Shown here: positions 8,665 to 50,500 of the stretch, in pieces
How positions within the stretch are numbered: position 1 is the first letter of the stretch
How the letters are laid out: every line of letters starts with the position of its first letter
Assembly: GCA_029762535.1 (NCBI GenBank)
Contig: JARVGK010000001.1
Span: 32,368-96,367 of the forward strand
DNA: 64,000 nucleotides
Direction of reading: 5' to 3'
Origin: Thermoplasmatota archaeon
GTDB lineage: Archaea > Thermoplasmatota > Penumbrarchaeia > Penumbrarchaeales > Penumbrarchaeaceae
Program-made: the position numbers and the translations under genes
The notes under the pieces: model-generated
The model's database searches: none
Seen by the model: the letters and a program-made list of their open reading frames with translations, nothing else
Told to the model about the DNA's origin: nothing

Positions 8665-9645
8665 ATGCCAGAAATGTCCTCCAAAGTGGAATGCCCCGAT
8701 TGTGGGCAGCCCCTGCTAACTAAGAACCTATCCAAGCATTACAGGAGGTACCATCCAGGTGTGGATCCGAGGCTCAGATTAAGGGAGAGCCATCGGCGCA
8801 AGCCCAAGAGGATAAGGTTCGACACCAGCGTCAGCCCTATGATAGTGTCCATCATAGTGATCCTCGTCCTGGCTGTATTGATCATCGGGGGCCTGATCAC
8901 CTATCGCCTCCTGAACCCTGTAGAGACCATTCCGGAATCCAGAAGGTTCTTCTTCTCCTCCTCCGACGGAGCGATAATAAACGGTACCTTCTACGGCACC
9001 TACTTTTCCGGTGCCCCCACCGTTTATCTCTTCCATGATATTGGCCAGGACAGGAGCGTTTGGGATGATCACGCGAGATATCTCCAGGAAAAGGGGTTCA
9101 ACGCAGTGGCGGTCGATCTCAGGGGCCACGGAGAATCGGTCATGAGCATAAAGAGCGCGTCCAAGACCTACGATCACATGACGATGACCCATAGAGAGTT
9201 CCTCAACATGTCCTTCGACCTCTTCGGAGCTTACGAATGGGTCCAGGGCAGTAGGGATGGAAAGCGCAACACCGATGCGGGAAAAAACGGCATGGTCGTC
9301 GCCACGGGGGAACTTGGCGCGATAATATTCGATCAGGCGGCGAAGATGTCACGCCAGTGGATAGTTGCAGGAGCCGTTCTAACGCCGGTGCTCGAGGCCT
9401 ACGGCATCGACATGTATCAGGTATCCTGGGATTGGGGCGGAATAAGACCGTTAATGCTCGTCACGAGCCAGTACGACGGCACATCGAAGCTCTCCCTCGA
9501 GAAGATGGCGGACAACAGGCCCGAGAACTCGAGGACGATACTCATAGAGGACTTCAAGTCCGGCTACGAGCTGATGGAGTTCCCATTGGTACGGACCATG
9601 ATCACGGAGACCTTCAACGAAGGGATACGCGTCTCCCCCGGTTGA
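8665..9645 (+). CDS. C2H2-type zinc finger / TM helix / alpha-beta-hydrolase-fold protein (nucleophile Ser apparently absent)
   Basis: CPDCGQPLLTKNLSKHYRRYH (C2-H2 spacing); TM MIVSIIVILVLAVLIIGGLITY; VYLFHDIGQDRSVWDDHARYLQEKGFNAVAVDLRGHGES typical of the alpha/beta hydrolase N-terminus; expected GxSxG position reads ATGELGA. Confidence 0.5.
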   Translation: MPEMSSKVECPDCGQPLLTKNLSKHYRRYHPGVDPRLRLRESHRRKPKRIRFDTSVSPMIVSIIVILVLAVLIIGGLITYRLLNPVETIPESRRFFFSSSDGAIINGTFYGTYFSGAPTVYLFHDIGQDRSVWDDHARYLQEKGFNAVAVDLRGHGESVMSIKSASKTYDHMTMTHREFLNMSFDLFGAYEWVQGSRDGKRNTDAGKNGMVVATGELGAIIFDQAAKMSRQWIVAGAVLTPVLEAYGIDMYQVSWDWGGIRPLMLVTSQYDGTSKLSLEKMADNRPENSRTILIEDFKSGYELMEFPLVRTMITETFNEGIRVSPG

Positions 9646-10189
9646 TGATGACCAGCATTGCTGCGGCCAGGAGTGGCGCGGCGAGGACCTCCCATCCGAG
9701 GGGCGATCTCTTTGCCTCTCCGTTACCGTTGCCATCATCGTCCTTACGCTCGAAATATATCGTTATCGTCTCGGAATTCTCGGTCGGATCGGTATCTCCA
9801 TCGGTCGCAGAGCCCTCGGCGGTGACGAAGAACCTGACGTCTATGAATTGATCCCCAGAGGGGTCCGTCTTCTCGAAGGGGCCGATGCTCGCCGTCCAGA
9901 TATCGCTATCGGCTGCTCTCGTCATATCTACGGGGATGTCAAGGCCGCAGTAGGTTTCCGTGCATAACGAGTATTTCAGGGTCACCTTGACAGGTTCGCA
10001 GTCTATGAACATGGGCGTCGCGTTGACTCTTATGACGTCATCGTGGGTCGGCTTCGTCGGCGAATACGATATGGAGCCTTCTTCCATCAATATCGCCGCT
10101 CCCTCGGCGTCGCTGATCATGAGCGTTGACAGGGCCATGAGCGAAAGTAACGATATGACCGCCATCGCTGAATATCCAATGTCCTTCAT
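9614..10189 (-). CDS. secreted protein with signal peptide and C-terminal TM anchor
   Basis: Start at internal MKDIGYSAMAVISLLSLMALSTLMISDAEG (signal-peptide-like); Asp/Gly-rich region; C-terminal GWEVLAAPLLAAAMLVIINRGRR. Confidence 0.4.
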   Translation of the reverse strand: MKDIGYSAMAVISLLSLMALSTLMISDAEGAAILMEEGSISYSPTKPTHDDVIRVNATPMFIDCEPVKVTLKYSLCTETYCGLDIPVDMTRAADSDIWTASIGPFEKTDPSGDQFIDVRFFVTAEGSATDGDTDPTENSETITIYFERKDDDGNGNGEAKRSPLGWEVLAAPLLAAAMLVIINRGRRVSLR

Positions 10190-10325
10190 GACCTCAAAGA
10201 GATGTGGCGGCCCTTTATCTATCTTTTCCGAAACGGCCCTCCATCGTCCCGAACGAGCATCACTCCATGGAAAGGGTTTAAATCGGCCCAATAGATTGCC
10301 CCCTTCATCTCTATGGGGGATAAAG

Positions 10326-11093
10326 ATGGAGACCGCCCTAGGAATAAAGCAGAGGATCATAGAGAAGATGGCCGACATCGACGCGGCGAAGTCGAGGTGG
10401 GTGGCCATAATGGTGTTCTTCCTCATCATCTTCGGAATAGCCCTGGGGATATTCTTCTCCCCCGCATCGGAGCTCGGCACCCAGAAGATGATCTATCAGA
10501 ACCTCAAGGTCAACGCCAACACCATAGACCGCTACGAGGTCGTGGCCGTTCCCGGCATGTTCACCATGACCTTCGAGGTGGAGATGGACGCTTCCCCGGG
10601 ACTCGAGAACAACTGGGTCTTCGCCTATCTATACAGGGATCAGCCCCCTGACATGAGCAAGGCCGAGGTGGAGGAGGACATGAGGCCGTTCCTCCTGTCT
10701 AACGCCTACCTTGCCCAGAGGCTCACATACGAAAGCAACAGGGTGGAATGGGTCGTCCCCTGGGTTGATTCGGGTTCAACGGTCTATTACGTGGTGCTAT
10801 ACAATCCCAAGAACCAGGAGAACCTCTATCAGGGCGACATGACCCCTGTTAAGGTGACCTCGTATTACGAGCCCACCCTTCCGCTTATACCGATCACATT
10901 CCTTTTCCTTCTGATAATAATCCCCCTGGGCATAGTCAGGATATACGTTCTGAACCAGAAGAAGAAGGAGCTGAGGATACAGCTGTCCCTGGACCTGGAC
11001 AACCTTTCGAACGAGGACAGGATCAGGCTGGGCATTCCAATGGAGCCCATGCCTCCCCCGGGGGCGAGGCAGGGCATGCCCCCCCCCAGTTGA
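10326..11093 (+). CDS. bitopic membrane protein with Pro-rich C-terminus
   Basis: Start METALGIKQR preceded by GGGGGATAAAG; TM WVAIMVFFLIIFGIALGIFF and LPLIPITFLFLLIIIPLGIV; divergent from the previous gene. Confidence 0.45.
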   Translation: METALGIKQRIIEKMADIDAAKSRWVAIMVFFLIIFGIALGIFFSPASELGTQKMIYQNLKVNANTIDRYEVVAVPGMFTMTFEVEMDASPGLENNWVFAYLYRDQPPDMSKAEVEEDMRPFLLSNAYLAQRLTYESNRVEWVVPWVDSGSTVYYVVLYNPKNQENLYQGDMTPVKVTSYYEPTLPLIPITFLFLLIIIPLGIVRIYVLNQKKKELRIQLSLDLDNLSNEDRIRLGIPMEPMPPPGARQGMPPPS

Positions 11094-11165
11094 GACCGGA
11101 CCACGTGAGATGGGCAACCCTTTTATGCCTCGACCACCTACCCTCTTCTCCCTAAACGAACGGGG

Positions 11166-12473
11166 GTGAATCATTTGGACGAGGACAGTCTTGCGCCCGT
11201 CATCCAGGAGATAAAAGGGGCGCTTCAGGATATGGATGAGGAAAAGCTGAGAGAGGAATTGAACAAGTACTTGATGTACGGGATAAACCTAAGAGAGGCC
11301 AGGAACGCGATCATCAGGAAATACGGTGGAAGGCCCAATACCGCATCGATCGGAACATTGGACCTAAAGGACCTGACAGGGGCCGAGAACAATTTCGATG
11401 TGATAGTGAGATGCATGGGTTGCAGCGAGAGGATGCTCAAGACCCAGAACGGGGAGAAGCCCCTTGTCATCGGGCTCCTGGCGGACAGGACCATGATCAG
11501 GCGTTTCTCTTCCTGGGAAGGGCACATGCTCGAGAAGGGCCGGACCTATGTGATCCACGGAGCCTCTGCCAGACCCTTCAGAGGTGAGGTGGAGATCAGT
11601 CTCGGACCCTACGCCACTTTCGAGGAGCCGGAAGAGGACCCGCTGGCTGACCTCGATGTCGGGGGCCTACCCAGATATGGCCCGCTCGTTCAGGTCAAGC
11701 TGAAGGACATACATCACGGCATGGGCAACGTAGAGGTCGTCGGGAAGATAATCGGGATGGAGGAAAAGACGATAACGGCCAACGATTCTCCAAAGAGGAT
11801 AATCGACGGTATGATGGCCGATGAGACCAAAAGGCTAAGGTTCACATGCTGGTCGGAACTGCCTTACAATGTTGGTGACGTTATCAGGGTCAAGGGTGCC
11901 TACGTCAAGGACTGGAGGGGGATCCCACAGGTGAATTTCGATGAAAGGGCCGAGATAGACCTGTTGGAAGATGTGGAGATCGACATAGAGGGCTCGAGGC
12001 GTCTTAACGCCGAGGACCTTCAGTTCGCGGGCGCGACCGATGTCGAGGTCAGGGGCGTCCTGATAGAGATCAGGGAGGGCTCCGGGCTGATATTCAGATG
12101 TCCTGTCTGCAATAGGGCGCTGACCTCTGGTACCTGCGCGGTCCATTCGGAACAGGAGGGGGTGCCCGATCTCAGGGTCAAGGTGGTAATAGACGACGGG
12201 ACCGGGTCGCTCTTCGCGGTCCTCAACACCGAGATCACGGAGGAGCTGCTTTGCATGGACGTCCCGGAATGCGTCAGGAAATACGGGACCACGGACGGAA
12301 GGGAGCTGATCGAACAGCTCAACAAAAGGCTCCTGGGCAGGACCTTCGTACTGCGAGGGAACGTGATCAAGGACGATTTCGGGTCCACCATGTTGCCGGG
12401 GTCGATCTCCGAGGATGAATTCCCCTATATGGATGAGGTCAAGAGCATCCTTGAAACCATGGAGGGATACTGA
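11166..12473 (+). CDS. replication protein A-like ssDNA-binding protein (OB folds plus Cys4 zinc finger)
   Basis: 435 aa; CPVCNRALTSGTCAVH zinc finger between OB-fold-like segments, typical of euryarchaeal RPA. Confidence 0.6.
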   Translation: MNHLDEDSLAPVIQEIKGALQDMDEEKLREELNKYLMYGINLREARNAIIRKYGGRPNTASIGTLDLKDLTGAENNFDVIVRCMGCSERMLKTQNGEKPLVIGLLADRTMIRRFSSWEGHMLEKGRTYVIHGASARPFRGEVEISLGPYATFEEPEEDPLADLDVGGLPRYGPLVQVKLKDIHHGMGNVEVVGKIIGMEEKTITANDSPKRIIDGMMADETKRLRFTCWSELPYNVGDVIRVKGAYVKDWRGIPQVNFDERAEIDLLEDVEIDIEGSRRLNAEDLQFAGATDVEVRGVLIEIREGSGLIFRCPVCNRALTSGTCAVHSEQEGVPDLRVKVVIDDGTGSLFAVLNTEITEELLCMDVPECVRKYGTTDGRELIEQLNKRLLGRTFVLRGNVIKDDFGSTMLPGSISEDEFPYMDEVKSILETMEGY

Positions 12474-13340
12474 ATGGTCAGAGGAAGGGAGACGGCGCAG
12501 AGGTTATTCGCCGTGGAATACAACTCCTCCAGGTTCGAGGACAGGGCCATAGAGGAGAACGCCCCGAACTACGTGATCACACCTCTGGGCAGTCATGTCA
12601 ACCGGCTCTTCTTCATGGGGGTGCTCATGAACAAGACCAATACCGGGACAGGTGATCTGCCGAACTTCAAAGCCGAGGTGAGGGACCCAACCGGGACGTT
12701 CTATCTCTATGCGGGGCAGTACCAGCCGCAGCCTTTGGCCGTGCTCTCGCATCTGGAGCCTCCAGCCCTCGTGGGCGTGGTCGGAAAGGTCCGGACGTTC
12801 ACCAAGGAAGATGGAACGTTCTATTCCTCCGTCAAACCCGAATCCATTTTCAAAGTGGACGTCCCGCAAAGGGACAGATGGGTCCTTGAGACGTCACGCT
12901 TCACCCTTGAAAGGATAAAGGCCTACGAGGACGTCTTGGAGATGGAGGAACCGTCCCTGGAATTACTGGCAGAGAAAGGCCATCCCACAAGGGCCGGGGA
13001 ATGCGCCTTGGACGCCTTGAGGCATTACGGGAGGTCCGAGGTCAAGGCCTACGCCGATGCCGTGAAGATCGCCCTCATGGCGGTGGTGGAGGGGAATGGA
13101 AGGCCGGTGGAAATTGGGAACGCCGAGCCCGTGAAGGAGGATATTGGCGAGGACGTCAAGGCCACCGTTCTCTCCATAATAAAGGAGCTTTCAGGGGAGC
13201 GAGGCGCTCTCTACAGGGACATAATGAAGGAGTGTGAGGCCCGCTCGATAGACAAGATAACATTGGAAGAGATCATTCAAGCGCTTCTCGATGAGGGTCA
13301 GGTTTACGAGCCAACCATAGGGCTCATCAAATCCATTTGA
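12474..13340 (+). CDS. RPA-associated subunit (RPA32-like: OB fold plus C-terminal winged helix)
   Basis: Immediately follows RPA with stop/start abutting (TGAATGG); N-terminal OB-like region, C-terminal helical wH-like ...ITLEEIIQALLDEGQVYEP. Confidence 0.45.
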   Translation: MVRGRETAQRLFAVEYNSSRFEDRAIEENAPNYVITPLGSHVNRLFFMGVLMNKTNTGTGDLPNFKAEVRDPTGTFYLYAGQYQPQPLAVLSHLEPPALVGVVGKVRTFTKEDGTFYSSVKPESIFKVDVPQRDRWVLETSRFTLERIKAYEDVLEMEEPSLELLAEKGHPTRAGECALDALRHYGRSEVKAYADAVKIALMAVVEGNGRPVEIGNAEPVKEDIGEDVKATVLSIIKELSGERGALYRDIMKECEARSIDKITLEEIIQALLDEGQVYEPTIGLIKSI

Positions 13341-23296: not shown

Positions 23297-23396
23297 TGAA
23301 GCACGTCTTTTTTTACCAGTAATTTTCGGGTCTTTTCTATTGAAGTAGAGGAATTTTTTAAGGAAAATTCGAATTTGACCCCTTTTGGGGCGCAGG

Positions 23397-23406
23397 TATT
23401 ATATAC
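23397..23406 (+). promoter_or_regulatory. TATA box (tattatatac) ~35 bp upstream of the S3Ae start
   Basis: Only strongly AT-rich element in the 140-bp spacer; preceded by GC-rich BRE-like ggcgcagg. Confidence 0.45.
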
Positions 23407-23438
23407 GGGGTCTGTATCGAGTTGTCGGAGGCCTGCCA

Positions 23439-24164
23439 ATGGCTAAGAAGCAGATATCCAAGGAAGCTAAGAAACTCAAGGACAAGTGGAAGTCGAAGCA
23501 GTGGTATCCCATTGTGGCTCCCGTGATGTTCAACAGGGTGCAGATAGGGGAGACCCTCTCCGACGATCCCGCAAAGCTAAAGGGCAGGACGATAGAAGTG
23601 ACGCTCCAGGACCTGACCGGGGATTTCAAGCTGATGCACGTCAAACTGAAGTTCCAGGTATCCGACTTCTCCACATCCGAGGCCTTCACCAGATACATAG
23701 GCCACGATCTGACATCCGACTACATCAGGCGTCAGACGCGGAGGAAGCGCACAAAGATGGAGGGCGTCTTCGACGTGACCACCAAGGACGGCTACAGGGT
23801 GAGGCTCAAGCCCATGGCCATCTCCGACAAGCGCATACAGAGCTCCGTTCAATACCTGATCAGGAACAGGATGATGGATGTCGTTAACCAGATAGGGTCC
23901 ACATCCACGTTCCCGGAGCTCGTCAGCACGGTGCTGACCTCCGAGAGGGAGAAGTCACTCTCCTACAAATTCGTCGATGAATGCCGCAAGATATACCCGA
24001 TCAAGAGGGTCGATATCAGAAGGATGGACGTTCTGAGCTATCCGGAGGTCGAGGCCACCGATCTAATATCGTCCATCGCACCGGTCCCCCCTCCCGAGCC
24101 CGAGGCCCCCGTAGAGCCCGAGCCTCCCATAGAGGAGGGGGCCCCAGCAACAGAAACGGCCTGA
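23439..24164 (+). CDS. rps3ae: 30S ribosomal protein S3Ae (eS1)
   Basis: MAKKQISKEAKKLKDKWKSKQWYPIVAP...; Pro/Glu-rich C-terminal tail. Confidence 0.9.
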   Translation: MAKKQISKEAKKLKDKWKSKQWYPIVAPVMFNRVQIGETLSDDPAKLKGRTIEVTLQDLTGDFKLMHVKLKFQVSDFSTSEAFTRYIGHDLTSDYIRRQTRRKRTKMEGVFDVTTKDGYRVRLKPMAISDKRIQSSVQYLIRNRMMDVVNQIGSTSTFPELVSTVLTSEREKSLSYKFVDECRKIYPIKRVDIRRMDVLSYPEVEATDLISSIAPVPPPEPEAPVEPEPPIEEGAPATETA

Positions 24165-24310: not shown

Positions 24311-25462
24311 ATGGCCAACGATGAGGGACCAGGGAAAGCGGCGTCGAACGGAAACGGGTTCGGCGGTGAGGCCGCCAGAGACCAGCATTCGGTGGCACGG
24401 GTGCACGTCGATTCCATTTTCGAGGTGGACCGTGATGGGAGCTTCAAGATCGTACCTGGGACCCTCGAGAGGATAACGGGTTTCTCAAGGGAGGAGCTTG
24501 AGCTTCTCACGCTCCCCAATGTTGTGATCCTTGAGGACCAGCCCCTGGCCATGAACGCCATAGAATCCGTTTTCGAGGGATCACCGCTCACCATCCAGGA
24601 GGTCTCGCTCATCTCGGAGGGAGGGGGATCGCGTCCCGTAGAACTGATAATGCTGCCAAAAAGACAGCAGGACAAGGTCTTCAGCGCCTGGGGGGCGGTC
24701 GTGGACACCGGGGACAGGATGGCACTGAAGGACCAGGTGGCGGCACTGAACGAAGGCCAGGAGCGCATGAAGGAGATGCTCAGGGATTTCGTCAATGTAT
24801 TGAGCAGGGACATAAGACAGCCATTGACCTCCATACTGCTCATACTGGAGATGATGGAATCGGGCCATTACGGGGAGATGGCCCAGACCTCCAAGGAGAA
24901 GACGAAGAAACTGATAGAAATGGTCGAGAGGATAAAGGATATACTTTCCGATGCCCTTGAGATGTCCAGGAGAATGGGCGGAGATTTCAGGTTCGAGCCC
25001 GGGGCCCTCTCATTGAAGGACACCTTGGAGGATGCCCTGAGGGCGAAGGACGATGTGATCCAGAAAAAGCGCATCAAACTCAAGAAGGCATACCGGGAGA
25101 AGGACACACTGGTGAACGCTGACAGGAAAGCAATATATCAGGTGGTCGAGACCCTCATCGGGAACGCTATCGCATCGACCCCTGAGGTCGGTGAGATCTC
25201 CATTGATATCGACTCGATCGACGGCTACCTGCAGGTCGCCATATCGGATTCGGGCGAGGGCATGGCCGACGATGTGATCGAGACGCTTTTCGACAGGTTC
25301 GACATCGACCCTGGAAGGGAAGGCGGGGTGATGTCCCTCGGCCTCGGTCTGTTCCTGTCAAAGAGGATAATAACCAAGCACGGCGGCAGGATATGGTGTG
25401 AGAGCTTCATAGGCCTCGGTTCCACATTCTTCTTCACCCTTCCCAGGGAAGGAGGTGGATGA
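24311..25462 (+). CDS. PAS-domain sensor histidine kinase-like protein (HisKA + HATPase_c); H-box residue is Arg
   Basis: HATPase_c N/G1/G2 boxes (IGNAI, ISDSGEGM, GLGLGLFLSKRI); H-box region reads FVNVLSRDIRQPLTSI where SHELRTPL is expected. Confidence 0.75.
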   Translation: MANDEGPGKAASNGNGFGGEAARDQHSVARVHVDSIFEVDRDGSFKIVPGTLERITGFSREELELLTLPNVVILEDQPLAMNAIESVFEGSPLTIQEVSLISEGGGSRPVELIMLPKRQQDKVFSAWGAVVDTGDRMALKDQVAALNEGQERMKEMLRDFVNVLSRDIRQPLTSILLILEMMESGHYGEMAQTSKEKTKKLIEMVERIKDILSDALEMSRRMGGDFRFEPGALSLKDTLEDALRAKDDVIQKKRIKLKKAYREKDTLVNADRKAIYQVVETLIGNAIASTPEVGEISIDIDSIDGYLQVAISDSGEGMADDVIETLFDRFDIDPGREGGVMSLGLGLFLSKRIITKHGGRIWCESFIGLGSTFFFTLPREGGG

Positions 25463-25829
25463 TATGGGTTCGAGCGTGATGATCGTCGAGGACAGGGAGG
25501 CGATCGCCTCGGTAATGATAGAGATGCTGGGGATCTCCGGATATAAGGTCGTCGCAACCGCAACGAACGGAATCGACGCGTTGGAGATGTATCGGACGCA
25601 CCATCCCGACATCGTTCTTCTCGACCTGGTCCTTCCGGACATCTCCGGCCTTGAGGTCGCAAAGGGCATATTGGATATGGACGGCTCAGCAAGGATAGTC
25701 GTTGTAACGGCACTTACAGGAGAGGGGATGTTGAAGGACTGCCTCGAGGCGGGATGTCGTGGTTTCCTCGTTAAACCCTACAGGATGGCGGAGCTTCTAA
25801 AGGCCATAGAGAAGGCCCTCACTGACTGA
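25455..25829 (+). CDS. single-domain response regulator (CheY-like receiver)
   Basis: MIVEDRE...VLLDLVLPDISG...VKPY; overlaps the kinase gene by 8 nt. Confidence 0.85.
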   Translation: MDDMGSSVMIVEDREAIASVMIEMLGISGYKVVATATNGIDALEMYRTHHPDIVLLDLVLPDISGLEVAKGILDMDGSARIVVVTALTGEGMLKDCLEAGCRGFLVKPYRMAELLKAIEKALTD

Positions 25830-26060: not shown

Positions 26061-29000
26061 GTGATAGATATCATGAAGGAAAAAATGCAAGGGAGCGCCA
26101 AGGCCATAGTATCTCTTTTCATGCTGGCTCTGCTGATCGTAATGCCATGGGGCATCACCGCGGATGCCAACGACCCTCAGCCGGCAGAGGTTCCGCCGAC
26201 AAGGGCCTGGCTCGACATCGCCATTGATGGGATCGAGAGGATCCAGAGCACTGTGTCGAACAATATCTATCCCGGTCAGAAGGTCGAATTGGCCGTACGC
26301 CTAGTCCATGATATCAGGCCGTATGTGAGCGATACCCCGATCACGAACTCCAATCCATTCACCGTGGTTATTGTCATCGACGATGACAAGGGGAACGTGT
26401 CGACAATGTACAAGCAGATCACCAGCATGCCTCTGACCTATACGGCAATGGATCCACAAACAGGCATGCCGAACCCTCTCTTCGTCTCATTCTTCTGGAC
26501 CGCTCCAGATAAGGCACCCCAGGGGTATTCATGGGCACAGATGAGCTATTCGGTCTATTCCACCATCACGGTCGATGACGACGACAAGTCCGACAATTTC
26601 AGGACGGGCTCGGCCATCAGGATCTCCGAACCCGACTTCCAGCCCCGGATCCATCAGGAGGACGAGACCAAACCTGGCGTCACCAGCAAGGTCCACGACG
26701 TCTCTCTCGGAGAGGCGGTGTTCCTTCCGTTCGACCTTTGGAACGAAGGTCCGGCAGTGGACATAATCGGCATAGAATACATGTCAATTCCCGAGGGTTG
26801 GGTTCCCTCGCCCTTCGAACCCATCGAGGTGTTCCCGAACAACTATCAGGAGATGAACCTCGCCCTTCTCGTTTCCCCCAACCCCGTTCTTGCCCAGCAC
26901 GACCTGACCTACGACCTTGTTGTCAGGCCTTATTCCACCTTCTTCAAGGAGGGCCCCTATAACATAGACCCGACCTACACGTTCAAGTTCAAGGTAAGTC
27001 TGGCGCCCGCATGCGTCATAGACCCTGCGACCCCCTCGATGATGCTGGTCCCAGGTATTAAGACCGACGTCCACTTCACTCTGAGGAACACCGGCAACGC
27101 CCGGGACACCTACACCCTTTCCTGGGCCCTGGACGAGAGGGCCAGCAAGGAATGGAGGGTCGATTTCAAATCAGGGATAGGCCAGCCTACCGTATCACCG
27201 GGCGAATCGACCCAGGTCACCGTTGGTGTCACGGTCCCCATAAACACGGCGAAGAACCAGAACGTTCAGCTTTTCATCAAGGCCGAATCGTCCAGAAGGC
27301 AGGGGATGATAACGACAAGTACACCCTGCGTGATATTCGCGGCCGAAAGATATGCCGCCGACATCGAACGTCAGACGGAGCCCCACCTGGTAGAGCCCGG
27401 AAGGGAGAACCGAATAACCTTCAACTTCACCAACATGGGCAACGACAAGGACCCCAACCAGGCCCTCAGGGTCCAGTCCGCTCCAAAGGGTTGGAAGGTG
27501 TTCATAGACCAGTCCCCCCTGAAAACGGGTAACGGGCTGGGCCCAAGGACCAGAACAAGGGTGACGATGACGATATTCGTGCCCGAGACCTCCACGACAT
27601 CATACAAATCATCCAGGCCTCCGTTCGTAATGGTACAGGCGGTGGGAGGGCCTTACCTGAACATACTCGATACCGAGCAGTTCTTCTTCGAGGTCCCTCT
27701 CAAGAACAGGGTCGGCCTCAGCTCGGACGATCCGATCAAGACGGGCTTCGTCGGTGGCCAGACCGAATTCATAGTTTATGTCCAGAACAAAGGCAACTGG
27801 GACGATACCTTCAACCTGACCACGGACTTCGAGTGGGCGGACCTTGAGATGGACCGAACGCCCCCCCTCTTCGCGAACGATTCCATCCCCGTCAGGATAG
27901 TCGTCAGGATCCCCTCTGACGCCGCAGCGGATACGAACCCGGACACGCCCAGGATCCTCGACGGATACAAGATACGCGTATTCGCCTACTCCCAGAACGA
28001 GACCCGAAAGGGAGCGACCCTGGTCAGCCTCGATCTGACCCTGAAGGTCGCCCCATTCTACAGCTTCGACATGGCGCTGGCACCCGGTGAGAGGCCACTC
28101 AGGTTCTCCACGGACCACGATCAGATCCGTGTCCTCAAGGTGAGGATTAGGAACACCGGGAACATAGCTGACCTGATACGCCTGGAATGGGAGGATAATC
28201 CCTTCTCATCCTGGATATTCCTGCAGAACGTTTACGTGGATGTGCCGTACAAGGACCATTTCGACGCATTGATCACAATAAGGCCCAAGGCCTTCACGGT
28301 CGCAGAGGCGCAGATCATCTCGATGAACCTGATCGGATACTCGCAGTACGATACCGAAAGGATACCGTTCAGATCGAACATATCTTTGGATCTCGAATTC
28401 TTCACGTTGATGTTCGAGATCAACCAACCCCGAATGAACAATCAGACCATTCAAGTGGCAGGTACCAGGGTCGAGCTCGATAAGAAGTACTCCTTCCAGG
28501 TGGAGATATCGAACATAGGCACGGAGGACCTCAACCCGATATACATGGACAGGCTGTTCATAGTGCTGTATGACGCAGGCTTCGAGGTTGACAGGTCGAA
28601 CATCACCTACCTCCTCAGGGGGGGCGAGAGGACGGCCTACTTCGTTTGGTATGCCTCCACACCGGGGCAGCACATACTCACCTTCGCCCTCGAGGGAGAG
28701 TTACCCATAAGCAACCGGGGAGTGAACGAGAAGCAGACGAGCCTCATCGTGAATTATACCGCGGGGCCCCCGGATCCTCCGCCCAACATTCCCGAACTCA
28801 TCGATTTCATGCCGCAGATTCTGCTGATGATCATATTCGGACTGGCCATATTCGTGTTCCTCTACATGTTCAACAAGATATTCATCTCGGCCATAGACAC
28901 GGGATACGACGAGGACGGGACGTACAGGCCTTGGGCGGTCAGGGAGAAGCTGAAAGAGGAGGACCAGCTGCAATCAGCGCCCGAGAGGCCCGCGCTGCCT

Positions 29001-42203: not shown

Positions 42204-42596
42204 ATGGTCGAGAACCACGAGCTATACTTCCACGGTAGGCCCGATCCCGCTTCAGGCCAGATATCGATCGGTCTTGTTCTTGTAAAACAGGGAAGGGTTT
42301 TGGACACGATGAACGGGAGCGTCTCATATTCAGGCAGCCGGGAGAAGGCGCAGTGGGAGGCACTCGTACAGGGCATGTTATTCGCCTCCTCCCATGATGT
42401 CAGAAGGCTGATCATGAAGGGCGATTCGAAATACGTCATCAACTATATGAACGGTGAAATGCCCAGAAGGGATTTCACAGAGATGGAGCATCTCCTTATA
42501 GCGAGGAAGAAGCAGCTCCTTTTCGATCAATGCTTCTTCCAATGGGTCCCCGAGAGCGCCAATTCCCAGGCGATACAACTTTCGAGGTCCGCTTGA
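42204..42596 (+). CDS. small RNase H-like-fold protein (possibly degenerate catalytic residues)
   Basis: LYFHGRPDPASGQISIGLVLV...SREKAQWEALVQGMLFA...KGDSKYVINYMNG resembles RNase HI layout but DGS reads HGR. Confidence 0.3.
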   Translation: MVENHELYFHGRPDPASGQISIGLVLVKQGRVLDTMNGSVSYSGSREKAQWEALVQGMLFASSHDVRRLIMKGDSKYVINYMNGEMPRRDFTEMEHLLIARKKQLLFDQCFFQWVPESANSQAIQLSRSA

Positions 42597-42677: not shown

Positions 42678-44132
42678 ATGAGGCTAAGGTTGTTCAACAC
42701 CCGAAGCATGGAAAAGGAGGATTTCGTGCCACTCGAGGAGGGCTGCGTAAGGATGTACGTTTGCGGCCCTACCGTGTATGACAACTGTCACGTCGGACAT
42801 GCAAGGAGCTATGTGGCCTTCGATGTTCTGAGGAGTTATCTCTCGTACAACGGCCTGACCGTGACATACGTTCAGAACTTCACGGATGTGGACGACAAGA
42901 TCATCAACAGGGCGCGAGAGAGGGGCATCCCGCCTCTGGTATTGTCCGAGCAATACATCCAGGAATACTTCGAGGACATGGGCGCTCTGAACGTTCAGAG
43001 GGCGACCATACACCCGAAGGCCTCGGAAACGATCCCGGACATGATAAACATCATATCCTCTCTGATCGGGAAGGGTTACGCCTACGAGGTCAACGGCTCC
43101 GTGTATTTCGAGGTCGAGAAGGCCAAGGAGAGGTTCGGACAGCTCAGACATCAGTCCCTGGACGATATGAGGGACGGAGCAAGGATCGAGGTCGATGAGG
43201 AGAAGAGGAGCCCCAAGGACTTCGCACTTTGGAAAAGGGCGAAGGAAGGGGAGATCTCCTGGGATTCCCCCTGGGGCAGGGGCAGGCCAGGATGGCATAT
43301 CGAATGTTCGACGATGTCCACCAAATACCTGGGAGACACGATAGATATCCACGGCGGGGGGATGGACCTGGTGTTCCCGCATCACGAATCGGAGATCCTC
43401 CAGTCGGAATCTTACAGCGGACAACAGTTCGTCCGTTACTGGGTACACAACGGTTTCGTTCAGATAGACAGTGAGAAGATGTCCAAATCCCTGGGGAACT
43501 TCTTCACGATCAAGGACGTCCTGGAACGCTTCGAACCCATGGTGCTGAGGTTCTTCCTTCTCTATACTCATTACAGGTCTCCAATAGATTTCTCGGATCA
43601 GGCCTTAGAAGAGGCGGGAAGGGCTCTCGAAAGACTCAGGTCCATGTACGGTTATCTGAAGAAGGCCGTGGGATCGGTCGAGGAGGGCGTCACCCCCGAT
43701 CTGGGAGAACCGTCCGAAAAGGCCGTAAGGGCCGCGTTCGAAATAAAGAAAGCCTTCATGGAAGCTATGGACGACGATCTCAACACAAGGGTCGCCATTG
43801 TCCAGTTGTTCCGTCTCGATGACGAGGTGAAGGCGATGAGGTCGGAAGCCGATCTGGATAAGGCGAGCGCTCACATGCTCATGTCCCTGCTCGAGGAGCT
43901 CTCAGGCGTTCTGGGGCTTTCCTTCGATGTCAGGGAGGAGGCCAAGGAAGCGGATCCTGACATACTACGCTCGCTCATCGAACTTTTATTGGAGGTGAGG
44001 AACGATGCGAGGAAGAACAAGGACTGGAGAACAGCGGATCTGATCCGGGACAGGCTTGGTTCTTTGGGGGTAAGGATCGAGGACACTGGGGAGGGCACGT
44101 CCTTCACGATCTCGAAACGGGCCGCCAAATGA
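42678..44132 (+). CDS. cysS: cysteinyl-tRNA synthetase
   Basis: CGPTVYDNCHVGHARS (HIGH) and KMSKSLGN (KMSKS); 484 aa. Confidence 0.95.
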   Translation: MRLRLFNTRSMEKEDFVPLEEGCVRMYVCGPTVYDNCHVGHARSYVAFDVLRSYLSYNGLTVTYVQNFTDVDDKIINRARERGIPPLVLSEQYIQEYFEDMGALNVQRATIHPKASETIPDMINIISSLIGKGYAYEVNGSVYFEVEKAKERFGQLRHQSLDDMRDGARIEVDEEKRSPKDFALWKRAKEGEISWDSPWGRGRPGWHIECSTMSTKYLGDTIDIHGGGMDLVFPHHESEILQSESYSGQQFVRYWVHNGFVQIDSEKMSKSLGNFFTIKDVLERFEPMVLRFFLLYTHYRSPIDFSDQALEEAGRALERLRSMYGYLKKAVGSVEEGVTPDLGEPSEKAVRAAFEIKKAFMEAMDDDLNTRVAIVQLFRLDDEVKAMRSEADLDKASAHMLMSLLEELSGVLGLSFDVREEAKEADPDILRSLIELLLEVRNDARKNKDWRTADLIRDRLGSLGVRIEDTGEGTSFTISKRAAK

Positions 44133-44257
44133 TGACATTCCACACCTGTGGCGCGTTTCTCTTTGACATATATCATGACACATTTAGGGTAATCCTTTTT
44201 AATTCTCGGGGTCAAACCCTATGCAGCGATCGAAGGAAGGTCCACACAGGTGTTGAG

Positions 44258-47200
44258 ATGAAACTGGGAAACGCACGATCGGCAGCCGCCCTGGCCATTC
44301 TATTGCTAATGACCCTCCTGCCCGTTGGCCCCATGATATCGGGGGCGGGATCAGGGGTGTTTGAGGGGGATATCGAAGAGCAGGAGATCGCCGATCAGTT
44401 ATCCTCCAGGCTCGTTTCGATGGGTTTCAGACCGAGGCATCCATACCATGGTTCCAATTTCATACAGACCCCCTCTCCCGCGCCCGAAGGGGCCCGGATA
44501 CATCCTACCGGAACCGCATCTATCGAAATGCACTCCTCTTCAACAAGATACAGCTGGGAAAGTTACTATTCAGATGATATTCTGGACGTCTATGTGGATA
44601 CCAGCACATCCGGCGGAGGCTCCCTATCCTCTCAGGAGGAGACCTTGCTCGACGCGGTAATAACCGATTTCATAGATTACTCCTATCCCAGGGTCAAGGA
44701 CTGGTATGATCCGCTGAACAGGGTGTCCAGCGTGACCTTCTACATCCACCAGATCGACGGGAGGAGCGGCACGGGCGGTTATTATTCGCCGGGTACCGAC
44801 GAGTTCCACATCGACAGGGCCGACATGGACTGGGCAGGGGAGATCGCCGCCCACGAGTTCCAGCATTACATACACGACAAGTACGACCGCTACGAGAACC
44901 TGTGGATAAACGAGGGAATGTCCGATCATGCCGCCTTCCTCGTTTACGGATACGCCTCCGTCCTGTCGAGCCATCTCGCCGTATATTTCAACTACTATCC
45001 TTATACGACCCTGCCGATAGACGATTACAGTTTCTACAGGGATGGCACCACCAGATACTACGGCGTCGCCTTCGCCTATCAGCTATACATGACCCATCAT
45101 TACGGGGGCAAGAACTGGTCAAGGGCCCTTATCAGGTCCTCTCAGAGTGGCATCTCAGGCGTGAACTCGGCACTGTCAACTCTGGGGCACACGGACCGCT
45201 TCCAGGACACCTTCGAAAAATGGATGGTCGCCTCCAGGGTGAACGACAAGGACGCCGGCAACAACGGCGAATATTCCTATGCCACCAGAAACTATCCTTA
45301 CGGCACCCTCCAGACGAAACTTATGGGGTCCTACAGTGGGATCCCGGTCGAGTCGGACGGTCAGATAGGACCCTACGGGCCCCAGTCCTTCAGGTTCACC
45401 TCATCAGCTGGATCGGCCAACACCTACAGGCTGTCGGTGGAGGTATCCAAAGGGTCCCTGTCCTTCGCTGTATATCCTGAGGTCTCGACCTTACCGAGGC
45501 AGGTTACCCTCATAAACTCCGATAGTGGATCGGCCATCTTCGATCTCGATGGATGGGGGAAGGACTTTCAGGCGTTCCAGGTGATCGTCTCGACCACCTC
45601 TTTGGCCGACCTCTCCATCGAACTGGACATACTCGATCTCGAGCCGCCGGTCACGATGTTCGGGATCAATCCTCCCTTACCCGACGGGGATGACGGATGG
45701 TTTATCTCGAAACCGTTGATAACGATGGCGACCGAGTCCGGAGCCACTACCCACTACAGGATAGATCAAGGACCGGAGATGCTTTACAACCAGCCCGTTT
45801 ACCTCGATGACGGGGTTCACACGTTCTCATACTGGTCCATTGACAAGAAAGGCAACGTCGAGGAAGCCAGACATGTCGATCTGAAGATCGACACGGAGGT
45901 TCCGAAGACCTCCATAAGCATAGACCCTGCCGTGCCGGACGGATATTGGTATACGGCCACCCCAACAATAACCCTCGGGACCGATCATCCTGATTCTTCC
46001 ATACACTACAGATGGGACCAGGAGGATTTCGTTCTTTACAGTTCACCGATCAAGGCACCGGAGGGGGAACATCAGCTTTCATGGAGGGCTGTCGACCAGG
46101 CGGGCAACCAGGAAACTCCCGGGAACATGCTTTTCAAGGTCGATACTCTGAGACCGACCCTGTCCTATTCCATTTATCCCTCGGAACCCGACGGGATGAA
46201 CGGCTGGTACGCGTCGGCTCCAAGGATCACCCTCTCGGGCGATGCCCAGGATACGATATATTTCGCCATGGGAAGCAACGATTACTCCAGATACTCCTCG
46301 GGTATCGTGATGCCCGAAGGCATCACGAACTTCAGGGCCGTATCGATGGACCAGGCCGGCAACAGAGGTGAGGAGCTGTTGATGCAGTTCAAGGTGGACA
46401 CGATAAGGCCCAAGCTCACCTGGTCCATGGAGGGTTTCAACTACATGCTGGACAACGCGAGCCAATGGTTCAATGCCCGCCCCGTCATCGATATCCAGTC
46501 CTCCGAAGGCGGGACCAGCATCACTTATTTGCTCAACGATGAGGAAAGATCATATGATGGGCCGATCGTTATTGATGAAGGGCACAATGAGATATGGGTC
46601 CATGCACGGGACAAGGCCGGGAACGAGGCGGAACCGCTTTTCTTCATAATCAAGATCGATACTAAGGCCCCGGTGGTCCGAAGCGAACTGGGCCCACCCT
46701 CGGACAACGGTTGGTACAACGATATGAACATGAAGGTGGAGCTCGAACTGGTTGGAGAGGACGACAGGTCCTCGCCGGCGACCCTTCATTACGCCTGGGG
46801 CGATGCGGAATACAGGACCTACAGGGACGCGATCCCGGTACCCGAAGGCATCAACACGTTGAGATACTTCGCCAGGGACTCTGCAGGGAACGTCCTGAAG
46901 ATAGAGAGCATCGAGGTCAAGAAGGACACCATTCGCCCGGAAGCGGCCATGGAACTCGTCGATGTGACGAACCAGACGATACTGGTCGGCGGCGAGTTGA
47001 TAGTCGATATGAGCGGATCGAGGGACTCGACATCGAACCTCCAATTCCAGTTCGATCTCGGGGACGGGACCATCATCTCGTGGCGCAGCACGTCATCTGC
47101 CTCCCATAGTTATTCGGAAGCGGGGACATATACGATAAAGGGATGGGTCAAGGACAGCGCCGGGAACGTTGCCGAGATCGAGCGAACGATCAATGTGGTC

Positions 47201-47338
47201 GAAGAGGAGATCCCGGCCGTTGATCGGGAAACGGGAACCAACCCGTTACTCCTGGCAGGAGGGGCGGTCCTTCTGGTCCTGCTTCTGGTGATCATAGCCC
47301 TCCTGGCAGTCATCCTCGTGCGAAGGCGCAATGCCTGA
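44258..47338 (+). CDS. surface-anchored zinc metalloprotease (thermolysin-like HExxH + E) with tandem Ig-like repeats, a PKD domain and C-terminal TM
   Basis: Start MKLGNARSAAALAILLLMTLLPVGP (signal peptide) after AGGTGTTGAG; HEFQHYIHDKYDRYENLWINEGMSDHAAF parallels thermolysin HELTH...NEAISD; repeats YRIDQGPEMLYNQPVYLDDGVHTFSYWSIDKKGNVE / HYRWDQEDFVLYSSPIKAPEGEHQLSWRAVDQAGNQE / LHYAWGDAEYRTYRDAIPVPEGINTLRYFARDSAGNV; TM LLLAGGAVLLVLLLVIIALLAVILV. Confidence 0.7.
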   Translation: MKLGNARSAAALAILLLMTLLPVGPMISGAGSGVFEGDIEEQEIADQLSSRLVSMGFRPRHPYHGSNFIQTPSPAPEGARIHPTGTASIEMHSSSTRYSWESYYSDDILDVYVDTSTSGGGSLSSQEETLLDAVITDFIDYSYPRVKDWYDPLNRVSSVTFYIHQIDGRSGTGGYYSPGTDEFHIDRADMDWAGEIAAHEFQHYIHDKYDRYENLWINEGMSDHAAFLVYGYASVLSSHLAVYFNYYPYTTLPIDDYSFYRDGTTRYYGVAFAYQLYMTHHYGGKNWSRALIRSSQSGISGVNSALSTLGHTDRFQDTFEKWMVASRVNDKDAGNNGEYSYATRNYPYGTLQTKLMGSYSGIPVESDGQIGPYGPQSFRFTSSAGSANTYRLSVEVSKGSLSFAVYPEVSTLPRQVTLINSDSGSAIFDLDGWGKDFQAFQVIVSTTSLADLSIELDILDLEPPVTMFGINPPLPDGDDGWFISKPLITMATESGATTHYRIDQGPEMLYNQPVYLDDGVHTFSYWSIDKKGNVEEARHVDLKIDTEVPKTSISIDPAVPDGYWYTATPTITLGTDHPDSSIHYRWDQEDFVLYSSPIKAPEGEHQLSWRAVDQAGNQETPGNMLFKVDTLRPTLSYSIYPSEPDGMNGWYASAPRITLSGDAQDTIYFAMGSNDYSRYSSGIVMPEGITNFRAVSMDQAGNRGEELLMQFKVDTIRPKLTWSMEGFNYMLDNASQWFNARPVIDIQSSEGGTSITYLLNDEERSYDGPIVIDEGHNEIWVHARDKAGNEAEPLFFIIKIDTKAPVVRSELGPPSDNGWYNDMNMKVELELVGEDDRSSPATLHYAWGDAEYRTYRDAIPVPEGINTLRYFARDSAGNVLKIESIEVKKDTIRPEAAMELVDVTNQTILVGGELIVDMSGSRDSTSNLQFQFDLGDGTIISWRSTSSASHSYSEAGTYTIKGWVKDSAGNVAEIERTINVVEEEIPAVDRETGTNPLLLAGGAVLLVLLLVIIALLAVILVRRRNA
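45650..46960 (+). repeat. about five tandem ~85-aa Ig-like (chitobiase-C/Big-like) domain repeats inside the metalloprotease gene
   Basis: Recurring Y..W.....Y..P(I/V)...EG.H.(L/F).(W/Y)...D.AGN.E units; approximate boundaries. Confidence 0.45.
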
Positions 47339-47538: not shown

Positions 47539-50500
47539 GTGATTAATATGATCAAGGGGAAAGTATCGATAGTTATGGCCACATTATTTTTGACAATGGC
47601 GTCCTTCGGCGTCTTGAGCTTCGCTCCGGCGGGGGGCGTTCACGAGAGCGTGAGCGAGGATCCGGTCGTTCAGGGCGAGGTGGACAAGGCTTATTTCATA
47701 AGGAACGACGGCCAGTGGGACAGCCCGATGGAATATGTCGGTCAGACCTCGCTCGGGGTCATGGGGTTCTCCCCGGACGGCGTGTTCATGAACATAGTGG
47801 AGGAGGTCCTCGAGAAGGACGAGGAGGTGCATAGGTCTGGGCATATTCTCCAGTTCACCTTCGACGGCGGCTATCAGGTGCTGCCGCAGGGGGGCGGCAT
47901 GCTCGAAGGCCACATGAACTGGCTTATCGGTCCGGAAGAGGAATGGGTCACCGAGGTGCCCCTTTTCGATAGCGTCATATACGAGAACGTGTGGGACGGG
48001 ATCGACGTCCGATACACCTATGGCGAAAAGGGGTTGAAGTACGAGTTCGTACTCGCCCCGTTCGCGGATCCCTCCGATATCGCCGTGAGAGTGGAGGGTC
48101 AGAGGTCGCTCAAGTTGATGGACGGGAACCTCGTCATAGACGTGAAGGAGGGCCTGACCGTCACAGATAAGGACCTCGACATATGGTATGACGACGGGTC
48201 CTTCGAGAAGGTCAACGGAAGGATCGTTATCCTTGATGGGAACACTTATACCTTCAGGATGGACGGCTACGATCCCTCACGGGGACTCGTGATCGATCCG
48301 CTGTATTACTCCACCTTCCTCGGAGGATACGGGACGGATTACGGCTACAGCGTTGATGTGGACTCCAAGGGATACGCATATGTAGCTGGTTATACCAGTT
48401 ATTCCTCATCCGGTGAGTTTCCCACGACCACCGGCGCTTATCAATCATCCAGGGCCTCGACCTCTTCCGATGCCTACGTCACGAAGTTCAACTACGCCGG
48501 ATCCGAGCTGATCTATTCGACGTTCATTGGAGGATATGGAACTGATTATGCCTACGGCATCGACGTGGATTCCTCCGGGAACGCATATATCACGGGCTAC
48601 ACATACTACTCATCTTCTGGTATCTATCCAACGACCAGCGGGGCCTACCAGACCTCATTTACATATACAAGCTATCCCGAGATATTCGTGACCAAGCTGA
48701 ATTCGGCAGGTTCCTCCCTATCCTATTCAACATTGATTGGAGGAGCTTACTACGATTACGCTTACGACATTGCGGTGGACTCCTCAGGAAATGCGATCAT
48801 AACTGGCCGAACAGGATATTCATCCACATACACTCCCAGTTACGGGGAATATCCGACCACTTCAGGAGCGTACCAGACAAGCAGAGCAGGGACGAACTAC
48901 GAAGCTTTCGTCACGAAGTTCAACTCGGGAGGAAGCTCACTTCTCTATTCCACCTTCCTGGGAGGATGGGGTTCAGATTATGGATATGGTGTGGCTGTGA
49001 ACTCTTCCGGCGAGTTCGCTGTGGCAGGATACACCTCTTATTCCTCGTCAGGCGAGTTCCCAACCACCTCGGGAGCCTATCAGGCGAGCAGGGCAGGCAC
49101 ATCTATGGATGCATTCGTCACGGCCTTCTCCTCGAGCGGAAGCGTCATCTATTCCACCTTTTTAGGCGGCTGGGGCAGCGATTACGGAAGGGCCATTGAT
49201 TTCGACGCCGACGGAAGGGTGGTGGTCGGAGGTTACTCCTCATACTCCTCCTCCGGTGAGTTCCCGACGACCTCCGGGGCATATCAGACCTCGAGGAGCG
49301 GGACTAGTATGGACGCGTTCGTCACGAAGTTCAGCTACCACGGATCGTATCTGGTCTTCTCCACTTTCCTTGGCGGGTCCGGATCTGAATACGTAGATCA
49401 AAATTCTCTGATGGTAGGTGATAACGACAACATTTATTTCGCGGGCCGCACAGTATCGAGCGATTTCCCGACGGTCAATGCCTATCAGGGATCCATCGCA
49501 TATTCATCATACTACGATTGCTTCCTTGTGAACTTAACGAGCGATGGCTCCACCCTATCCTATTCGACATACTTCGGAGGCGGTTACTACGATTACGCAT
49601 ACGGCCTGGCAGTCGATAAGTACAACAACGCCTATGTCACCGGATATACCCGGTATTCATCCACGTATTCCACGACATACGGCGAGTTCCCGACGACATC
49701 CGGAGCCTATCAGACCAGCAGGGCCGGGGACAGCTACGAAGCCTTCCTCTTTAAATACGGGGAGAATTTCACCGATGACACAGCACCGGTCCTCGGTACG
49801 GACAGCTCGGATTCATCCGCCTATACTGGCCAGGATTTCACCTTCCAGATCGCGGTCACGGACAACGTCGGTGTAACTAAATTGCATGTGGAGTACTGGT
49901 TCGGAACAGGATCCCACACGAACGATTCGATCCCTCTACTGGAGCCTTACACCCATACGATAACGGTCCCGAACTCTCTGGACACGATGTACTATTTCTT
50001 CTCCGCGGCGGATTATCACGGCAACTGGGTGAAGGGATCCACTCAGAGCAGGTCCCCCATTGACGGATCGGGCCCCGAGTTCGCGGATATGTCCATAACT
50101 CCTGACCCGCCCACGACCGGTGACAGCGCGACGGTGATGGTGAACGTCACGGACAACGTTGCAGTCGATAACACGACGGTGATGATCCATTTCAGGGACC
50201 AGACGGACGCTTCTTACACTTCCGCATACATGACCCATGTATCGGCGGACCTGTACAGCTATACCAATACGATCGGGACATACTGGACCCGTGTATACTT
50301 CTATATTACCGCCGATGACACCGCCGGTAACAGCGGCTCCACGGCCATAATGTATCTCGACGTCGATGATAACGATCCCCCGACCTTCGTCAGCGATGGT
50401 TCGGATCCAGTCGCTTATACTGGAGATCCCTTCACTTTCAACATAACGATGAACGACAACGTCGGGATCGATTACGCATATGTGGAGTACTGGTTCGGGA

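Follow-up and report, generated by a model that had tools for sequence, protein, structure and literature searches.

Does a gene laid out as a sensor histidine kinase still specify one when an arginine stands in place of the phospho-accepting histidine, and what might its product do otherwise? The question is raised by an open reading frame (ORF) at 24311..25462 on the forward strand of a 64,000-nt stretch of a Thermoplasmatota archaeon genome (assembly GCA_029762535.1, contig JARVGK010000001.1, positions 32,368 to 96,367), the whole of which is called the window here. The ORF encodes 383 aa with a PAS-DHp(HisKA)-HATPase_c layout, and a gene for a stand-alone CheY-like response regulator follows it. 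An original prediction, made from the letters of the DNA, had noted that the H-box reads SRDIRQPL, with Arg at the position of the conserved His. From comparison with its relatives we infer that the protein is a lineage-specific histidine pseudokinase, which would lack the ability to autophosphorylate on His and in which ATP turnover is improbable.

The protein contains RDFVNVLSRDIRQPLTSILLILEMMESGHYGEM and is identical to NCBI MDG6223931.1, of which the databases hold one copy of the exact sequence. Pfam HisKA (PF00512) matched residues 157-221 (E 1.6e-10; 41.3 bits against a cut-off of 26.9) and HATPase_c (PF02518) matched residues 271-380 (E 2.9e-21; 76.4 bits against a cut-off of 26.4), while the Pfam PAS match over residues 34-123 was weak. 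No REC domain was found inside the pseudokinase with Pfam, and no named NCBIfam kinase family was reached, the best score being 123 bits against cut-offs of 342-725. In GenBank the protein is named 'HAMP domain-containing sensor histidine kinase'. A Pfam scan of the window protein found no HAMP domain, and the name is evidently wrong on both counts, the acceptor His being absent as well.

Arginine at the phospho-acceptor position

Database matches to the window protein included a sharply bounded family of 20 proteins (377-408 aa, 265-831 bits, 36-100% BLASTP identity), the next match scoring 128 bits. Every member comes from a Thermoplasmatota or 'Thermoplasmatales' metagenome-assembled genome (MAG), including assembly ex4484_6 and one labelled EX4484-6. 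A profile search of 1.8 billion representative proteins, whose list was crowded by multi-domain kinases with summed PAS/kinase matches, returned three more family clusters (P0122, P0123 and P0128), the canonical kinase P0256 and two unrelated kinases with sporadic His-to-Arg changes; a scan of metagenome contigs added at least four family loci. Taken as a whole, the family is small, appears to have been inherited vertically and is confined to Thermoplasmatota MAGs. We came across no description of it in the literature, where searches on Arg-at-His kinases and on EX4484-6 two-component genes gave nothing specific.

In phmmer alignments to solved kinases, R166 of the window protein stands opposite the phospho-His (query 'vnvlsRdirqpltsi' against 8u4x 'vavvsHdlrnpmtvi') and likewise faces the His of VicK and WalK ('vsHelrtpltsl'). 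When the DHp-CA cores of the 120 best database matches were aligned with MAFFT, the acceptor column held His in all 100 non-family sequences and Arg in all 20 family members. The ORF, the codon and the register of the original prediction were confirmed. A shift of the acceptor to His186 or to another residue had been set beforehand as the refuting outcome, and the alignment makes no such shift. His186, in the motif SGHYGEM, was also rejected as an alternative acceptor because it is not conserved (F10/Q4/H3 of 20), and the family alignment contains no other conserved His in the DHp domain.

The comparison was extended to 32 distinct sequences, obtained by removing redundancy from 20 database proteins, 3 cluster representatives, 10 species-representative genomes and at least 4 metagenome contigs. 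Arg occupies the acceptor site in all 32, down to 34% identity, and no orthologue has His there. Four different Arg codons are in use among 15 DNA loci (AGG 8, CGG 3, AGA 3, CGC 1), which indicates that selection acts on the amino acid; the CGC codon of one orthologue lies a single step from CAC, yet His was never seen. The AGG codon of the window differs from CAY at all three positions, one more than the minimum of two that had been claimed for it. One metagenomic member (L089:809-2017) has the H-box REMKQTLT, in which Pro171 has become Thr and Arg169 has become Lys, while Arg166 and Gln170 are kept; these two residues therefore appear to be more constrained than the otherwise universal H-box Pro.

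It could be objected that the gene is an artefact, or a recently decaying pseudogene of a normal kinase, and its metagenome-assembled source and the single database copy of the exact sequence would fit that view. Sequencing or assembly error, already thought unlikely in the original prediction, is ruled out by the 32 distinct orthologues with Arg, which come from independent assemblies, and by their four codons. All three positions of the AGG codon would have to change to give CAY, no reading frame is truncated or broken, and the ratio of nonsynonymous to synonymous substitution rates (dN/dS) is 0.09-0.18 between unsaturated orthologue pairs, a sign of purifying selection. We put the chance of an artefact or a pseudogene at next to nothing.

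Non-His residues at the acceptor position are not very rare in themselves. The best 150 representative proteins contain ~265 DHp domains, about 7 of which are credible non-family cases, and roughly 2-3% of the DHp domains looked at have some other sporadic substitution (Q, S, K or D). The two unrelated HisKA kinases with an acceptor Arg are P0168, a GAF-kinase of 739 aa from a Methanofastidiosia MAG (VVSRELRNPL), and P0171, of 829 aa (VMSREVRTPL). Unlike the family, both keep N or T four residues beyond the acceptor position. The window protein also has a second His-to-Arg change, at residue 108 in the PAS domain (24632-24634): the family has a near-invariant His there (GSHPVEL, 18/20), and P0002, the closest relative, shares the Arg of the window protein (GGGSRPVEL).

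ATP site, H-box and docking helix

The 20 family members were compared column by column with 100 canonical kinases. The N, G1 and G2 boxes of the ATP site had been described as intact, and for the window protein this description holds in part: like a minority of the family, it retains N285 and G346, and it also has G344 and the G1-box residues D313, G315 and G317. It does not hold for N281, K288 and G342, which are Thr, Ala and Ser, respectively. For the N and G2 boxes of the family at large the description fails. N281 is replaced by T/S/D in 20/20 members (N in 99/100 canonical kinases) and K288 is lost in 20/20 (canonical K88/R7), while N285, the Asn that binds Mg, survives in 8/20 members at scattered places in the family, against 100/100 in the canonical set. 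G342 is Ser in 13/20 (canonical G 90/100); G346, Gly in 100/100 canonical kinases, is Asn in 16/20 and remains Gly in 3/20. An intact N box (N...N..K) with the G2 glycines is thus present neither in the window protein nor in the family. Invariant in the family are D313, G315 and G317 (G1 box), F327 (F box), G344 and the HGGRIWCES...GLGS segment. The catalytic ligands of the ATP site appear not to be maintained by selection in this family, whereas the G1 and F boxes, which define the fold, have been retained.

These losses bear on the proposal, one of two options in the original prediction, that the protein uses an unconventional residue. It would then be an active kinase in which Arg166, another residue or another protein accepts the phosphate, which would pass on to Asp57 of the regulator. 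The window protein does possess N285, D313, the G1 box, G344 and G346, the Arg is invariant and not variable, and phospho-arginine has a high-energy P-N bond, being a phosphoramidate as phospho-His is. Against this, selection is seen on Arg166 and not on ATP catalysis, since N281, N285, K288, G342 and G346 are not kept across the family. A literature search for Arg-substituted histidine kinases found none, and we know of no precedent for a GHKL/DHp kinase that phosphorylates Arg. The archaeal sensor RdmS, which has no H-box, showed no specific autophosphorylation (PMC11784639). Arg in 32/32 orthologues, the lack of any other conserved His and the unmaintained ATP ligands together argue against any ATP-dependent autophosphorylation, on an unconventional residue included, and we consider such a kinase very improbable. 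The same evidence points to the other option of the prediction, a non-phosphorylatable pseudokinase. Of the features that define the histidine-kinase class, the protein has the DHp domain, the HATPase_c domain and the adjacent regulator and lacks the acceptor His; judged on its sequence it lies outside the functional histidine-kinase class (EC 2.7.13.3) and is clearly derived from it.

The best-conserved segment of the protein is DHp helix 1 (157-184), with a mean pairwise identity of 72% in the family, rising to 77% over the H-box (162-174), against 52% for the PAS domain, 48% for DHp helix 2, 46% for the CA domain and 12% for the first 33 residues. Counting from the acceptor (H), the residue at H+1 remains acidic (E17/D2/Q1; D167 in the window protein), and Arg at H+3 and Pro at H+5 are retained. 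H+4 is Gln in 20/20 members, vs T77/S11/N9 in the canonical kinases, and Gln is also present there in 18/18 related loci. L176, L177, E180, K209 and A215 are fixed in the family and variable among canonical kinases; by analogy with HK853-RR468, these are the docking and specificity positions.

A monomer model was computed with AlphaFold2 (AF2) from a 20-sequence alignment. It comprises a PAS-like domain (25-132), a long helix (134-184) carrying R166 and Q170, a short loop, a second helix (192-223) and an alpha/beta CA domain in which the ATP-lid region (331-339) is disordered. Over residues 31-130, 10-residue blocks of the PAS domain have a mean predicted local distance difference test score (pLDDT) of 78-89 and a PAS-like pattern of helices and strands. 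Foldseek matched the model to the full-length PAS-kinases YF1, VicK and WalK, to the DHp-CA cores of HK853, ZraS and DivL, and also to the histidine-kinase-related modules of phytochromes (A/B) and NifL. The predicted model and the fold search confirm a generic PAS-DHp-CA fold only.

The partner regulator and the conserved locus

The protein encoded after the pseudokinase gene is a receiver by Pfam (Response_reg, E 1.8e-26). It reaches no named NCBIfam family, the best match being a haloarchaeal CheY model at 84 vs 200 bits. E12, D13, D57, T85 and K107 are invariant in 4 aligned orthologues, and the motifs are also legible in 11/11 translated orthologues; because these residues are intact, the regulator is expected to be phosphorylatable. 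A receiver-only regulator overlapping the kinase gene by 8 nt had been predicted here. The regulator is indeed there, but the overlap assumes a GTG start at 25455. The start is probably the ATG at 25464, 1 nt past the pseudokinase stop, since a GGAGGTG motif precedes it and the N-termini of the orthologues match. In orthologues the two genes are 3 nt apart, overlap by 4 nt or are 1 nt apart; in the window they are tightly coupled whichever start is used. The coordinates of these features are collected in Table 1.

Table 1. Features of the pseudokinase locus, in window coordinates.
Feature	Position	Strand	Details
Ribosomal protein S3Ae gene	23385..24164	+	Pfam E 2.1e-62; upstream in every locus reaching that far
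Pseudo-histidine-kinase gene (predicted)	24311..25462	+	383 aa, PAS-DHp-CA; stop TGA at 25460-25462
PAS-like sensor domain	24410..24709	+	Residues 34-133; weak Pfam PAS_3/PAS, AF2, Foldseek
DHp (HisKA) two-helix hairpin	24779..24979	+	Residues 157-223; Pfam HisKA, AF2 helices
Codon AGG (R166)	24806..24808	+	Phospho-acceptor His position, from alignments to kinases
Codon CAG (Q170)	24818..24820	+	H+4; Thr/Asn position of the HisKA phosphatase motif E/DxxT/N
CA (HATPase_c) domain	25001..25450	+	Residues 231-380; Pfam
N-box region QVVETLIGNAIASTP	25139..25183	+	N285 kept, N281 to Thr, K288 to Ala
GGAGGTG Shine-Dalgarno-like motif	25451..25457	+	Inside the pseudokinase 3' end, 6 nt upstream of the regulator ATG
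Stand-alone CheY-like receiver	25464..25829	+	121 aa from ATG 25464, or 124 aa from GTG 25455
CARDB/NPCBM_assoc Ig-like surface-type protein	26061..29201	+	1046 aa; Pfam; downstream in every locus reaching that far

The regulator adjoins the pseudokinase in 15 of 17 distinct related loci, in addition to the window. In every locus long enough to show it the gene order is amidohydrolase, S3Ae, pseudokinase, regulator, a 1050-aa CARDB protein and, on the opposite strand, a UPF0020 methyltransferase, except that L004 and L010 are without the regulator. This conserved order suggests that the family is an old, vertically inherited part of a core-genome block.

We propose that the pseudokinase docks the regulator, because constraint on the protein is strongest at the docking face of DHp helix 1 and its gene is tightly coupled to that of an intact CheY-like regulator. 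In the reading that we favour, and to which, the general docking claim included, we give slightly less than an even chance, the protein would be a reader of the phosphorylated regulator comparable to DivL of Caulobacter crescentus. On the docking face R166 and Q170 are separated by one helical turn; they would touch the regulator's phospho-aspartate, so that the pseudokinase would prefer the phosphorylated form of the regulator. Docking would be coupled to the PAS domain, either as an input that gates docking or as an output to another partner, and the phosphate on the regulator would be supplied by another kinase or by a small-molecule donor. Arg is a common phosphate ligand. That this Arg is invariant, unlike the drifting residue of the Streptomyces protein PsmA, which illustrates a simple loss, and that an invariant Gln lies one turn away argue for a positive role of the side chain.

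Several observations weigh against a phospho-regulator reader. L004 and L010 keep an intact pseudokinase (REIRQP[LM]T) and have no neighbouring regulator gene; only ~300 bp lie between the pseudokinase and the surface-protein gene (L004:1272-1563 and L010:4952-5275), with no receiver ORF. A tblastn search of these gaps for a decayed regulator gave weak, collinear, non-significant fragments in L010 only (best E 0.014, against a tiny database). We take the regulator to be absent from both gaps, the L010 fragments being a hint of a decayed receiver gene; either the regulator is encoded elsewhere in these two lineages or their pseudokinase has a regulator-independent function. A source of phosphate is also hard to point to: hidden Markov models built for this analysis found no other kinase or regulator in the 64-kb window, and two-component genes are very few in Thermoplasmata, with 3 kinases and 4 regulators in 11 genomes (PMC5847659). 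Moreover, the window protein and its closest relatives retain N285, G344, G346 and the adenine-binding D313, and the window protein may still bind nucleotide. Finally, the AF2 model is only moderate (pLDDT 76; predicted template modelling score 0.45).

The loci that lack a regulator gene while keeping REIRQ intact could also be explained by a pseudoenzyme that works independently of the regulator, that is, a dimeric PAS-sensor scaffold acting on another partner, as NifL does with NifA and PsmA with DivIVA. Something connected with the surface-protein genes, which are always adjacent, would be a candidate for that partner, and the neighbouring regulator would be an accessory. The presence of the 1050-aa CARDB protein in every locus, including a CARDB surface-type gene downstream in both loci without a regulator, agrees with this, and histidine-kinase-like proteins that signal by protein-protein contact are known (NifL, PsmA). 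However, the strongest constraint falls exactly on the regulator-docking helix and the H-box, the regulator is tightly coupled in 15/17 distinct loci, and the synteny also takes in housekeeping neighbours (S3Ae, amidohydrolase), which suggests that the order of the genes is frozen and need not mean a functional link. We regard such a scaffold as clearly unlikely.

Docking could alternatively serve to dephosphorylate the regulator, which we rate as somewhat unlikely. Here a kinase-dead, phosphatase-only partner would act on the docked CheY-like protein through its acidic H+1 residue and the water-positioning amide of Gln170; the PAS domain would regulate this activity, and how much of the regulator is phosphorylated would depend on an unregulated donor, either another kinase or a small molecule, and on this regulated phosphatase. 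The residue at +1 is E or D in 19/20 members (D167 here, E in most orthologues), the amide at +4 is invariant, and the regulator is intact and stoichiometrically coupled. A catalytic Gln or Asn amide operates in other regulator phosphatases, namely CheZ (Q147), NarX-type proteins (DxxxQ) and CheX (ExxN). For HisKA proteins of archaea that have no kinase activity, Galperin et al. have suggested that they act as phosphatases (PMC5847659). The HisKA phosphatase motif, however, is E/D-x-x-T/N (summarised in PMC12963549; also in the bioRxiv HisKA-profile paper), and of the strict form, H-E/D-x-x-T/N, the family has the acidic H+1 and not the Thr/Asn at H+4, the Gln in its place being one methylene longer. 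DivL has no phosphatase activity, and an intact pseudokinase in two lineages without an adjacent regulator gene would be odd for a dedicated phosphatase. In HK853 and EnvZ the unprotonated His is said to do part of the phosphatase chemistry, and a charged Arg would mimic the less active protonated state.

A more speculative possibility, which we see as a long shot, is that Arg166/Gln170 is a newly evolved functional dyad and not a mere loss. As a phosphatase of the kind exemplified by GTPase-activating proteins, Arg would be an 'arginine finger' and Gln would position water, and signalling would be controlled wholly at the dephosphorylation step; a small-molecule donor would charge the regulator, as these genomes may have no true histidine kinase. 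Otherwise phospho-Arg would be a relay intermediate. Either version, if true, would be a two-component system running without histidine.

Further upstream in the window lie genes for prolyl-tRNA synthetase (ProRS), RIO1 kinase and eIF-1A. The product of 26061-29201, with CARDB, NPCBM_assoc and VWA7 Ig-like domains and a C-terminal tail rich in proline, resembles a cell-surface protein. It belongs to a set of very large ORFs in the window (1046-1978 aa), the others being at 30323-33496, 44129-47338, 47539-53475 and 54209-57949; by Pfam the product of 30323-33496 has PKD and CARDB domains and that of 44129-47338 Big_13/PKD-type Ig-like domains. The UPF0020 methyltransferase gene (29205-30215, opposite strand) is flanked by the ORFs 26061-29201 and 30323-33496, an order conserved across the lineage. 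In L009, from a GTDB representative MAG, the amidohydrolase and surface-protein genes are broken into overlapping ORF fragments (L009:5558-6860 and 9516-12880), which is probably an assembly frameshift error and not biology. A 130-aa ORF at 42204-42596, beside cysteinyl-tRNA synthetase, encodes an RVT_3 domain (RNase H-like, 'reverse transcriptase-like').

Comparison with known systems

Pseudo-histidine kinases form a small and poorly charted class, in which DivL is the sole well-understood case and PsmA was described in 2026. DivL (PDB 4Q20) offers the best functional analogy. Both have the PAS-DHp-CA layout, a conserved non-His acceptor residue, a single-domain regulator as partner and a weakened ATP site. 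In DivL the His is replaced by Tyr (Tyr550), neither kinase nor phosphatase activity is found and binding of trinitrophenyl-ATP (TNP-ATP) is weak; DivL uses the ordinary docking face to bind DivK~P, a single-domain regulator, and has its PAS domains as the output (PMC4211667). The differences are that DivL has Tyr and not Arg, is alphaproteobacterial and membrane-anchored, has several PAS domains and is not encoded next to divK, whereas the archaeal family arose independently and has in addition changed H+4 to Gln. The window protein is not a DivL orthologue, its phmmer match to 4Q20 (E 2.1e-20) being weaker than those to many canonical kinases (8u4x, 3.8e-28).

With canonical PAS-HisKA kinases (WalK/VicK 4I5S/5C93, HK853 3DGE, YF1 4GCZ) the family shares Pfam domains, fold and the motif x-E/D-[IL]-R-x-P-L-T; it differs from them at the acceptor His, at the Thr/Ser/Asn of H+4 and in the intact N-box N/N/K and G2 glycines that they possess. 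The nearest canonical relative found is P0256, a PAS-HisKA-HATPase protein of 372 aa from a Methanofastidiosia MAG, with the H-box SHELRTPL and 29% identity, which also has the family-flavoured motifs EMMES, GLGLYI and HGGKIWCES.

PsmA is likewise a lineage-conserved protein of histidine-kinase type without the H-box His. Its acceptor residue varies (E/D/Q/V/Y), it has no autokinase activity and it acts through DivIVA (PMC12963549). Its architecture is hybrid and E/DxxT/N is gone (XSLRGP), whereas the archaeal family has an invariant Arg, retains the acidic residue and encodes a separate, intact regulator alongside. MsmS and RdmS (MA_type 2, Methanosarcina acetivorans) are archaeal histidine-kinase-like sensors that also have no phosphorylatable H-box His. 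In these orphans the H-box region is wholly absent, yet ATP is bound and hydrolysed, and RdmS has no specific autokinase activity (PMC11784639); the present family, by contrast, has an intact and highly conserved H-box helix, degenerate ATP ligands and an adjacent regulator. NifL and plant phytochromes too have the histidine-kinase-like fold and signal without a His-Asp relay, but through other partners (NifA, PIFs), in other lineages and with no co-encoded stand-alone receiver. Subfamily-2 ethylene receptors are related to histidine kinases and signal without His phosphotransfer; their partner is CTR1, and again no receiver is co-encoded.

In the archaeal family, an invariant Arg that co-varies with an invariant Gln at the phosphatase position points to a re-designed docking or catalytic face, and the intact partner regulator encoded alongside makes the pair directly testable in vitro. 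The family could thus show how the two-component core is repurposed in archaea, where two-component genes are rare. Pseudo-histidine kinases as a kind are already known from DivL and PsmA; what is new here, as read from the sequences, is an independently arisen archaeal family, deep and spread across its lineage, in which the Arg/Gln pair is invariant, the ATP site decays and an intact regulator is encoded next to the pseudokinase.

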